A stretch of 64,000 bases of DNA from Octopus vulgaris (lineage: Eukaryota), in assembly GCA_951406725.2 (NCBI GenBank), contig OX597826.1, positions 69,006,001-69,070,000 on the forward strand. The letters are read 5' to 3'. The notes below the pieces were generated by a model, which had not been told where the DNA came from, searched no databases, and saw nothing but the letters and a program-made list of their open reading frames with translations. Both the position numbers and the translations under genes were made by a program. Shown one piece after another: positions 43,734 to 48,774 of the stretch; positions within the stretch are counted from its first letter, which is position 1, and each line of letters opens with the position of its first letter.

Positions 43734-45947
43734 TATGTGTGTGCATGTGTGTCTGTGTGTGTATCTCACTCACTCATTTCTCTGTATATATACATGCTAT
43801 ATATATAGATATATAAATACACATATATAGACACATACATATACATATAAACACATGTATATATAATTATGTTTGTGTGTGTGTGTGTGTGTGTGTGTGT
43901 GTGTGTGTGTATACATCTATTTGACTCCTGCAATATGCAGTTACTGTTCAGATCCCTTCACCTCGACGGTCATTGTATTGTCAGACACGTGAATACTCAT
44001 TATTTTCTCTCTTTAATTAGTTAATTACTTACTGCATTGGCCTATTTTCATATTGGATTTCTATTTCCTGTCAGCCATATTCATTCCGCATTCTCCACAC
44101 CCGAAACTGTGACGTACAAGGACACATGGACAAGAACAAACAGTGAAACAGATAAATACCATAAATCTATACAAGGCAAGAATACAAAGTAGGAAACAGA
44201 TAAATACTATAAATTTATACAAGGTAGATAGCAAAGCAGCTACATACAGGCAGATAGACATATATGGAAACCGATTTACACATATACATACATATATATG
44301 CATGTATATATATATATATATATATATATATATATATATATATATAAAAAGAGAGAGAGAGAGAGAGAGAGAGAGAGAGAGAGAGAGAGAGAAAGAAAGA
44401 CAGACAGACAGAGACAGACAGACAGACAGAGATAGAGGCAGAGAGACAGAGAGACAGATATGGAAACTGATTTATACATATACATACATATATGTGCATG
44501 TATACACACACACATATATATATATATATATATATAGAGAGAGAGAGAGAGAGAGAGAGAGAGACAGAGAGACAGACAGACAGACAGACAGAGAGACAGA
44601 GAGACAGAGACAGATAGACAAAGACAGATAGAGATAGAGGCAGAGAGACAGAGAAAGAGAGAGAGAGAGAGAGAGAGAGACAGGCAGACAGACAGACAGA
44701 CAGACAGAGAAAGAGGCAGAGAGACAGAGAAACAGAAAGAAAAGTGAGAGAGAGAGAGATTCGTGGAAATCCTTACATTAAAGTGTATGTTTAGTGATAG
44801 GAGGATAAATGGTAATCCAATTATAGAATGAATAAAGTTTAATTCATCTCTTTAGGAAATGCAGATTCGTAAACGGATATACATACATACATACATACAT
44901 ACATACATACATACATATATATATATATATATATATATATATATATATGCACATAAGTATTTGTATAAACAGGTATAAATAATACCTGTGTGTGTGTGTG
45001 TGTGTGAATGTGTGTATCTTGAATTTCGATATAAGATTTTAATACTAAATGTTATTTTTCAAAAATTAAAATACAAAGACAATCATTTACAAATTTATAA
45101 ATCCATACAGATATGTGATGGGGCGTATTGGCTGGGGAAGGTTATATTATATCATCAAATTTATAGCCATATTCTACTTAGAAATGAGTCTCAAGAGGGA
45201 GTGATTATTATTGTTGTTGGTGTGGTTGTCGTTGTCAATGCTGTGGATGTTGCTATTTTTGTAGTTATTATTATTATTATTGTTGTTGTTGTTGTTGCTG
45301 TTGTTGTTGTTTTTTTGTTGTTGTTATTATTATTAGTTTTGAATGCGTAGAGATTAACAGGAAATTACAGTGAATTGCGAAGCAGAGAACAATCACGTGA
45401 TGATTATGATGATAACATGTGCGTGTGTGTGTGTGTGTGCGTGTGTGTGTGTGTGTGTGTGTGTGTGTGTGTGTGTGTGTGTATGTGTGTGTGTGTGTGC
45501 ATGTCTGTATGTGTGTGTGTGAGTTAGATGGTTGAAACGTATTTGACACAGGCAACGTATCTTGAGTTTTATTGGTTGGTTATATAGATGTTGAAGTATA
45601 TAAATGCCTACACACGCATCACAGAGAGAGAGAGAGAGAGAGAGGGAGGAGAGAGAGAGAGAGAGAGAGACGCACGCACACAGACACACACACACGAACA
45701 GACATATACACACAGAAGCAGAAATATATATATATATACACACACACACACATATATATATATATATATATATATATATATATATATATATATATATATA
45801 TATATATATATATATATATATATATATATATATATATATATATATATATATATATATGAGAGAAACTAAGAAAGCTGTAGACAGATAGATAGATAGATAG
45901 ATAGATAGATAGATAGATAGATAGATAGATAGATAGATAGATAGATA

Positions 45948-47394
45948 TGTTTCTTTATTAGCCACACAGGGCTGCACACAGATAGAACAAATTACAAGGT
46001 AGAGCTTTTCTTTTGAAGGTTTAAGAAAGAAAAAAAAAAAAAAAAAAAAGGAAGGGGGAGTTTCGATCAAAAGGGATCGTAAAAGGAGAGAAAGAGGACA
46101 AAAAAAGGGGGTTTAAAAAAAGGGGGGAGGAAAAAAAATTGATCAATAGGGATCGTTATCACAGAAATGTCGATATGAAGTGTAAAGGGGAGGACAGGTG
46201 AGGTTTACCCGTGCAAAGAAAAGCCTACGGAAAAGACCACGGTAACCTCGGTCAATGATGTCACATTTTATATTTCTTTTTTTTTTTTTTTGCAAATAAG
46301 CAACTCTCTGTTTTCGATTTCTGGGTTCATAGGACTATGCTCAAGGTGGCTTCGTCATTCATACGTGCCATTCTTGCTACATTCACCCATCTTTTTTTAA
46401 AACATTCGCTAGACAAAACTTGCCTCTCTACTCTCACTTTCCTTTTCAAGTGGTACTTGAAGAAGTTGATGAGAGATTGACCAGAGAGGAAAGTGTTTGT
46501 CTCCAATCCTTTCAGACGCGTCCACCAGATACATTCTTTCGCCATAGCCACAAGGATGATGAAAATAGCTCTTCCTTCCCGTTTGAAGGAAGGAGGCGTG
46601 ACAATATTGACGATAGACTCAGCTGATAAACCGACTCGTCCCACACGTGACAGCAGTTGTTCGACATAAGCCCACAGGTCGGAAATTGTTGGACACTGAA
46701 CGAGTGCGTGCAGAACGGTTTCGTCGCTCTGACCGCATCTCGGGCAGGTCGGCCCCGTGTTTCTCGAGCCGTGTCTGTAGAGCTTATCCCGAACGGGTAG
46801 CGCTTCTCGGTAGCACTGCCAGGCCAGGGATCTCTGGAAGTTGTCCATGGGCCCTGGCCCGAAAGTCGTCCTGAACAGGCGGGTCAGGTACTCCTCGTCG
46901 ACGTCCAGGTTCGCCCCGAGCTCGTCGTCGTACCTCCCTTCCACTAAACCCCTATAGAATGCTTTGGTTGTGTTGAAGTCACTTAAGGTCGACCCAGGAC
47001 GGCAGAGTTGCTTGAGAGCAACGCGACACTCGCGGTGCCATTCGCCCTTCCTCGGCCTCTTTTTGATCCACGACTGCAGTTCGATCATGGAGACGAGCTG
47101 CGGGAAAGCGTGCCTCACAAACGGCGACCACACCTGTTCACCGTCGTCTACATAGAGCCAGAGATGCCGCAGTCTCAGCGCGTGTCTGCGCATCATCAAC
47201 CACGGCATGCCCAGCCCTCCTTTTAACGGGTGTTGACAGCAAATGGATCGCCTGACCATCGGGACGCATCCTTTCCACAAGAAGCGAAAGAGGATGCGTT
47301 GTAGTTTGGTGATGGTAGGGTCGGGACAAGGTACGACGGTCAGGCGGTAGTAGATGACGGACGCGATGTACGTGTTCGCCACCTCCGCTCGACC
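45948..47394 (-). mobile_element. 5'-truncated L1/Tx1-clade non-LTR retrotransposon inserted in (GATA)n
   Basis: GC-rich island with open ORF2 C-terminus; 3' UTR ends AATAAAGAAACA-(TATC)n; (GATA)n at 45883-45947 and 47395-47510. Confidence 0.9.
46327..47394 (-). CDS. Partial ORF2 (post-RT region + zf-RVT) of the Tx1/L1-like element; no start codon, truncated
   Basis: GR..VAN..I.S..YY..P..FLWKG..P..GGLG.P and CPRCGQSDETVLHALVQC; ~355 codons without a stop. Confidence 0.85.
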   Translation of the reverse strand, partial: GRAEVANTYIASVIYYRLTVVPCPDPTITKLQRILFRFLWKGCVPMVRRSICCQHPLKGGLGMPWLMMRRHALRLRHLWLYVDDGEQVWSPFVRHAFPQLVSMIELQSWIKKRPRKGEWHRECRVALKQLCRPGSTLSDFNTTKAFYRGLVEGRYDDELGANLDVDEEYLTRLFRTTFGPGPMDNFQRSLAWQCYREALPVRDKLYRHGSRNTGPTCPRCGQSDETVLHALVQCPTISDLWAYVEQLLSRVGRVGLSAESIVNIVTPPSFKREGRAIFIILVAMAKECIWWTRLKGLETNTFLSGQSLINFFKYHLKRKVRVERQVLSSECFKKRWVNVARMARMNDEATLSIVL

Positions 47395-48774
47395 AGATAG
47401 ATGGATGGATAGATAGATAGATAGATAGATAGATAGATAGATAGATAGATAGATAGATAGATAGATAGATAGATAGATAGATAGATAGATAGATAGATAG
47501 ATAGATAGATAAAGTAGACAGACAAATTGCACTTGTGTGTAAGGCAGTGAATTCTGCACATTGTATGTAAATGTTACGTACGTAAATTGGATAATAAGGG
47601 ATATTAAGTGGATGTTAAAAAATACATGACTTATGAAAGAAAATCAATATGTTTACGTATAAATAAGAACTCGTATTATATACAAACATTGATATACGTA
47701 TACATATAAATACACACTTATATAGCCATGCATATGTATATATAAACACACAGCTCATACGTTTATGCAATGCATTGCGAAGGAATATAAGCATACACGT
47801 TTCCTGTTTATGTGCATATCACTTCATCTTGACATTTATCATAACAAGGATCAACTACTCACATTTATTAAAACCTGATTGCTGAACAGATATATAAATA
47901 TTATGGAATATACTGGAATCGCATGTAAACACTCACACAGATGCAAATGCGCGCGCAGACACTTAAATACACAATCACACAGATAGATAGATAGATAGAT
48001 AGATAGATAGATAGATAGATATATAGATAGGTAGATAGATAGATAGATAGATAGATTGATTGATGGATTGATAGATAGATAGATAGATAGATAGATAGAT
48101 AGATAGATAGATAGATAGATAGATAGATAGATAGATAGATAGATAGATAGATAGATAGATAGATAGATAGATAGATAGGTAGTATTCATGATTTTAATAT
48201 TGAATTCAAAGCATGAATACTATTCTTCACTGTTTATATTTTATGTTATATAAAATGGGCATTCGGTTTAAAATTATATTTCCATATATAAACCTTAACA
48301 CGGTAGTCCATAGAATAGTGGTCTGTCTGTCTGTTTTCTCCAGTCTCTATCTCTCTCCTTCTCTCTATCTCTCTCTCTCTCTCTCTCTCTCTCTCTCTCT
48401 GTTTCTCTCTCTGAGTATATATGTGTGTGTTTGTGTGTCTGTCTGACCATATATCTACACACAACACGCAGGCTTGTGTGTGTATATATATGTACCGGTA
48501 TAATCTGAGTTTATGAGCGTGTAGTGTGTGTAGGGAGAGGCGAAATGTTCAAAACAGTATTCAATGCCTTGGGACAAGATATGTTTTTTTTTTATGTTTA
48601 TTGCAGATGGGAATACAATATTAGTTCTTTGAATTTTGTGTTCCCGAAAATCAGACTGGATATGAAGTCATGAATTCCAATCCGGCACTGACTGGGAACC
48701 TGATATTCAAATAAACACATGTTAGATTCCAGATTCAATATATACATGCATACATATTATACAATAAACAGGAT

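Follow-up and report, generated by a model that had tools for sequence, protein, structure and literature searches.

The window analysed here, a 64,000-nucleotide (nt) stretch of Octopus vulgaris DNA (assembly GCA_951406725.2, contig OX597826.1, positions 69,006,001 to 69,070,000 of the forward strand), contains three copies, A, B and C, of a long interspersed nuclear element (LINE) set among arrays of the tetranucleotide GATA. The element is a LINE of the L1/Tx1 type, copy A is truncated at 47394 and has arrays on both sides, and 3/3 copies stand in one orientation and one phase relative to GATA. We propose that they belong to a high-copy octopod Tx1-type family whose endonuclease leads its insertion into pre-existing (GATA)n, a reading to which we give a probability of roughly 0.62; that the family prefers GATA arrays by one route or another, be it through its endonuclease or through the tail of its RNA, we consider probable.

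Copies of the element and their junctions

The copies and the arrays that flank them are as follows, in coordinates of the window:

45949-47394, minus strand: copy A, a 5'-truncated LINE of 1446 nt comprising a partial second open reading frame (ORF2) and the 3' untranslated region (UTR)
45949..46326, minus strand: the 378-nt 3' UTR of copy A, 37% GC and containing U-rich tracts
45959-45954: AATAAA in copy A, 5 nt ahead of the final element base, without a poly(A) tail
46327..47394, minus strand: C-terminal part of ORF2 in copy A (P0001), 355 amino acids (aa), open, 54% GC, cut on its 5' side at 47394
46672..46830, minus strand: zf-RVT zinc knuckle, aa 189-241, E 3.3e-8
45883..45947, plus strand: (GATA)16 array at the 3' junction of copy A
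47395..47510, plus strand: compound GATA array at the 5' junction of copy A, with 2 AGAT, 2 GGAT and 25 AGAT units
38505..38645, plus strand: GATA array of about 35 units at the 3' junction of copy B
38647..38754 (right end approximate), minus strand: copy B, the final 105-108 nt of the 3' UTR
38755..38761, plus strand: TAGATAT spacer between the 5' cut of copy B and the 3' end of copy C
38762..38970, minus strand: copy C, the final 209 nt of the 3' UTR
38971..39016, plus strand: (GATA)11 array at the 5' junction of copy C, passing into GACA units

Copies B and C were found by BLAST of copy A against the window. On the plus strand, the three 3' ends begin at 45949, 38647 and 38762, each preceded by GATA and one further letter (T at 45948, A at 38646, T at 38761), and the sense strand of the element reads into TATC in 3/3 copies. 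An initial annotation of this DNA had placed the three ends behind GATA in a single orientation, and its coordinates were right; it had also set the 5' truncation points of copies A and C against (GATA)n, and AGATAGAT does follow directly on both cuts, at 47394 and at 38970. The short junction that it reported between two copies is the spacer at 38755-38761, the sole link through which B meets C. With a common 3' end and copies stopping at about 105, 209 and 1446 nt, the set has the form of 5' truncation with a fixed 3' end, and poly(A) is absent at 3/3 junctions.

The two 5' joints differ in detail. Copy A and the array at 47395..47510 have no letter in common where they meet, and the cut of copy C lies at the position of an internal AGATA in a family variant, which would permit a microhomology of 5 nt. 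Any target-site duplication would be concealed within the GATA array; a match of GTAGACAGA at the outer array edges was considered as such a duplication and rejected, its placement being wrong for one.

The open reading frame at 46327-47394 (minus strand) runs for 355 codons with zero internal stops, and contigs of 548 and 279 nt from the public runs described below differ from copy A by 2 and 1 letters. Copies B and C diverge from A and from each other, with A/B/C identities of 62, 57 and 56 over 68 nt. The uninterrupted frame noted in the initial annotation stands, whereas the youth deduced from it holds for copy A, which looks young, and not for B or C.

Other observations concern the same region. 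The 3' UTR carries, at 46069-46155 and 38860-38927, a conserved GGGATCG motif in two occurrences, set between variable A-rich tracts. Beside copy B, at 38407-38645, (TATC)24 adjoins about 35 GATA units without a break, which makes a perfect inverted microsatellite and potential hairpin. A further long compound GATA array lies at 47981-48176, 470 nt from copy A, with no adjoining element.

Identity and relatives of the element

Of the named relatives, the nearest are a protein of Argonauta hians (62%) and, at 83% over 13% of the query, a short piece in a gene model of Octopus bimaculoides, which points to an octopod as the host. P0348, a protein 72% identical to that of the window, carries APE endonuclease, reverse transcriptase (RT) and zf-RVT domains, and from its alignment the endonuclease motifs appear to be present; in copy A zf-RVT is seen, APE and RT having been lost through truncation. 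With APE and RT supplied by P0348, the element has the APE, RT and zinc knuckle that characterise APE-type non-LTR retrotransposons (those without long terminal repeats) of the L1/Tx1 group, and the Tx1/L1-like identity assigned in the initial annotation is upheld. A tblastn match of P0348 that extends to 47406 was set aside, its end being a spurious continuation into the array.

Against 7 near-full-length fish TX1/pol-like proteins P0348 reaches 284-369 bits, and against an eighth, partial one 123, compared with 175 bits against human L1 ORF2p. On these bit scores and the domains we provisionally call the element Tx1-type, the RT tree (a quick method, 40 rows) having been built without an L1 outgroup and without the named Xenopus Tx1. 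In this tree the cephalopod-like RT rows join unnamed 1150-aa elements (support 100), and the fish rows form a separate group (support 100). Among the latter, P0366, P0435 and P0427, whose records say only 'pol-like protein', are presumably the Kibi and Koshi deposits. The octopus family does not nest among the fish microsatellite-targeting families, and its RT is 35-38% identical to that of the fish group; judged by this tree, it is not a member of the Kibi/Koshi lineage, and would be distant kin on a separate branch.

Searches in other collections returned little. P0348 had no match in viral contigs, full-length copy DNA was not found in scans of the metagenome, prokaryote and viral collections, and the ESM Atlas gave unnamed RT/APE clusters only. 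Hits to the 3'-end pattern (one metagenome-contig locus and three prokaryote loci) were discarded as chance matches with unrelated flanks. The junction pattern gave 76 viral loci, likewise chance hits; BLAST over 77 collected loci yielded one 22-nt match with no extension. Among the relatives, P0008-P0037 form a large unnamed sister group of elements of about 1150 aa that are 41% identical to P0348; their clusters, on long ENA contigs, have as many as 732 members. An O. bimaculoides RhoGEF10 gene model (P0004) opens with about 45 residues from the ORF2 of this element, possibly a gene-model artefact; its cluster also lists two longer or later models.

Copies in public contigs

Contigs from 4 of the 24 listed runs were aligned on 45933-47414, with 51248 (X1), 36171, 13439 and 288 contigs fitting per run; these are contig totals, not copy numbers, and they indicate a family present in many repeats in each of three organisms with different labels. 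In 4/4 runs other copies run on past 47394 (68, 44, 38 and 5 contigs) with the reading frame kept as in P0002. Because they continue as coding sequence, 47394 is a true truncation and the 29-unit array beyond it is pre-existing host DNA, which bears out the proposal of the initial annotation that the GATA repeat is a target that was already there and not just a tail. Within X1, 15228 of the 51248 contigs are at least 99% alike.

Statements on loose ends refer to the 24 rows listed, 2700 further rows existing. None of the 24 is a loose end at the 3' junction, 45949, which lends weak support to 3' ends bound to GATA. One row (X9, 4 contigs) departs from the reference at 45935, after about three GATA units, and goes on in GATA/GACA-like letters, and an X4 joint from 45982 to 45933 links a 34-nt 3' stub via GATA units to another, B/C-like 3' end. 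The loose-end consensus of 44 contigs in X1 (agreement 0.67) has an internal AGATA at the position of the copy C cut, a hint that 5' ends join the array through microhomology. Contig depth drops on the right, where the flank is unique, and does not drop on the left, where the flank is GATA; this fits the model, with little weight, a summed depth not being a copy count.

Over 45933-47414 the copies differ from one another mostly by C>T and G>A, which account for 144 of the 275 places in X1; decay of methylated cytosines would give such a pattern.

Chance and control repeats

Same-strand GATA arrays of at least 3 units occupy 712 of 64000 nt, 1.1% of the window. AGATAGAT starts at 0.25% of plus-strand positions, or 0.125% if the four flanking arrays are excluded, and the chance of two independent 5' cuts falling on it is about 1e-4 or rarer, uncorrected for the choice of copies by eye. 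Self-comparison of the window gave 45 interspersed-repeat intervals, 3 from the GATA-flanked LINE family and 42 others. Among the 84 ends of those 42, which are alignment ends and partly not true termini, 0 are found 10 nt or less from a GATA array, the nearest being 21 nt away. Conversely, 11 of the 15 GATA arrays listed adjoin no element end, two of these being outer parts of the copy B array.

A SINE-like repeat with the same tail

A repeat resembling a short interspersed nuclear element (SINE) has a 3' tail like that of the LINE:

54372..54604, plus strand: SINE-like repeat, its final 42-45 nt resembling the LINE 3' end (29/42)
24366-24537 and 29376-30333: further locations of the SINE-like repeat

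The tail agrees with the LINE end at 33/42 positions at 29497, 29680 and 29864 and at 32/42 at 24365, and 200 shuffled queries reached at best 27/42 anywhere in the window. Common 3' ends mark SINE-LINE partners (PMC4824008). With a common tail and sites outside GATA, there are two options: the SINE is moved by a sister LINE that has a different target, or the target is set by the RNA tail. A common stem-loop in the LINE and SINE tails was not found, 5/6 single folds being no better than shuffles; one SINE-like copy folds with z -2.46, and the consensus fold has 3 pairs at -0.07 kcal/mol. ARAGORN reports no tRNA gene; by our own reading, the head of the SINE-like repeat may be tRNA-like.

At 29497-30047 the SINE-like units stand head to tail, about 184 nt each; shorter repeats of 69 nt come after them. 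Another abundant family of SINE-like repeats (2159-2578, 24668-25052, 58296-58667 and others) is interrupted by an internal (TA)n(TG)n microsatellite and terminates in AGTAAAAG-type repeats. Short open frames at 12588-13076, 36281-36643 and 51214-51612 resemble, by eye, fragments of other transposons.

A proposed route of insertion and its alternatives

The junctions are consistent with a set of steps that may have led to the copies in the window:

(i) Insertion would proceed by target-primed reverse transcription within a pre-existing (GATA)n array. The APE endonuclease would nick the GATA strand, and the freed end of that strand would prime copying from the 3' end of the RNA; for copy A, the (GATA)16 array at 45883..45947 would be the primer side of the target.

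(ii) Reverse transcription would halt early, leaving the 5' truncation, and the cDNA would join the TATC side either directly (copy A) or via a short AGATA match (copy C). LINE 5' ends join in both ways, directly or by microhomology (PMC4245944).

(iii) All the phases would fit if both strands were nicked at the T-A step and the array concealed a duplication of 4n letters. This fit is not unique but one of several, as slippage masks the true nick.

(iv) Copy B would most simply have landed later than copy C, in the array 7 nt from its end, although a template jump or a duplication may have placed it there instead.

(v) The preference would be set mainly by the endonuclease, possibly aided by a few UAUC units at the end of the RNA. 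We assign the leading part to the endonuclease by analogy with Xenopus Tx1L, whose endonuclease is sequence-specific by itself (PMC1950540).

Several points weigh against endonuclease-led insertion into arrays. In crocodilians, Tx1-Mar and SINEU pair a Tx1 LINE with a probable SINE partner, as in the octopus window, and SINEU has the target of its Tx1 partner (PMC4494074), whereas the SINE-like repeat in the window has the 3' end of the LINE and not its target: its outermost ends (24366, 29497, 54604) lie in GATA arrays in 0/3 cases, which counts for a role of the RNA tail. The endonuclease domain seen is that of the 72%-identical P0348 and not of the family itself. The junctions, too, carry qualifications: the array to the left of copy C has 1.5 units, and the one to the right of copy A is compound and contains two GGAT units. 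The sample is small, three copies picked by eye at two independent loci, and no GATA-type 5' junction of another locus is found among the 24 rows listed.

The same arrays might be reached with a lax endonuclease, cutting for instance at any T-A step, if a UAUC-tailed RNA paired with the nicked GATA strand and only GATA sites primed efficiently; the target would then be inherited from the previous landing site. Textbook cleavage falls 10-30 nt downstream of AAUAAA and, with AATAAA 5 nt from the element end, would leave 1-6 UAUC units on the RNA, although these units are a prediction only. The lack of poly(A) at the junctions and the invariant phase agree with such homing, as do the SINE-like repeat, which has the same last 42 nt without a TATC tail and lies outside GATA arrays, and the target-contact hairpin of P0348, which is gapless against human L1 and 2 residues shorter than in the fish proteins. 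Yet the SINE may be mobilised by a sister LINE with a different target, Tx1L provides the precedent of an endonuclease that is specific on its own, and specificity is not predicted by loop length alone (PMC1950540). We regard homing through the RNA tail as rather unlikely, and as unlikely its fuller form, in which read-through UAUC units carry the target and guide insertion, the same enzyme scatters the SINE, and targeting was acquired independently of the fish elements.

An element with a (TATC)n tail might instead insert broadly and merely seed microsatellites, with the arrays at the 5' ends due to chance or later slippage. Seeding from LINE tails is known for CR1-L3 in snakes (PMC8303610), L1 and Alu also seed microsatellites (PMC3812793), simple repeats are plentiful in the window, where they mask 15724 of 64000 nt, and the copies were chosen by eye. 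A tail leaves the arrays at the 5' cuts unexplained, however; same-strand arrays are scarce in the window, copy A is young and yet meets a 29-unit compound array at its 5' cut, and the many arrays without element contact indicate that arrays occur independently, so that seeding alone appears improbable. It is more doubtful still, indeed very improbable, that the 5' junctions are secondary, made by later deletions or assembly joins that brought an internal AGATA to a nearby array and removed the 5' parts. The match of the copy C cut to an internal AGATA would suit this, and none of the contigs listed spans the whole stretch; but the copy A cut has no common letter (the element goes on with T, the array begins with A), a same-strand array near the 5' side would still be required, and short contigs are to be expected of a many-copy repeat. 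We therefore retain endonuclease-led insertion into standing GATA arrays as the best account of the copies.

Implications

If this account is true, GATA, with its T-A step on both strands, would be a new unit among those used by microsatellite-targeting LINEs, and probably of independent origin. The family is very abundant (the 51248 contigs in X1, again not a copy number), and thousands of junctions in public octopus assemblies could test the model. The SINE-like repeat, with the same 3' end at other sites, makes the choice between endonuclease and RNA tail directly testable; were the target set by the RNA, the family would be a LINE of very high copy number that inherits its target from itself, and LINE and SINE together would form a natural control pair. 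In octopus, different GATA markers may often have retroelement flanks in common.

Comparison with known systems

Waldo and Mino belong to the R1 clade and Dong to the R4 clade, unlike the octopus LINE. They follow the same strategy of landing in simple repeats at other units, AC-type for Waldo and Mino and TAA for Dong, and stand beside Kibi at (TC)n and Koshi at (TTC)n among the established microsatellite-targeting non-LTR elements (PMC3812793); the two families that the initial annotation named as Tx1 examples are on record there. Crocodilian Tx1 families occupy (TTCC)n/(TTTC)n (PMC4494074). The teleost Kibi and Koshi and the crocodilian families resemble the octopus LINE in their APE-type, Tx1-like ORF2 and in microsatellite insertion, and differ from it in that their unit is a pure pyrimidine run, whereas that of the octopus LINE is GATA/TATC and its host an octopod: instead of (TC)n or (TTC)n, (GATA)n/(TATC)n is found in 3/3 copies. 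A Tx1 family has been taken as target-specific when more than 20% of its flanks are of one type (PMC4494074); the GATA-flanked share here is 3/3 copies within the window, at two loci.

In O. vulgaris, L1-Tx1 elements comprise 80 families and 56.3 Mb, with 13 families recently active (PMC13282606), and L1-Tx1 is part of the expanded repeat set of coleoids (PMC8967140). The octopus LINE is of the same class and host group and may well be among the 80; by term search, the main text of PMC13282606 is without 'target' and its supplement without 'GATA' or 'TSD'. Our literature searches found no GATA-targeting Tx1 and no target of an octopus LINE, although one may already be recorded in Repbase or Dfam, in Kojima and Fujiwara 2004 or Ohshima and Okada 1994, or in Fig. 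3 or the supplements of PMC4494074, which the searches did not cover. The targeting mechanism of microsatellite-targeting LINEs is described in a review as 'not well understood' (PMC3812793). Set beside these systems, the family in the window is probably a GATA-targeting Tx1-type LINE of a lineage apart from the fish families, following a strategy already known with a unit that appears to be new.

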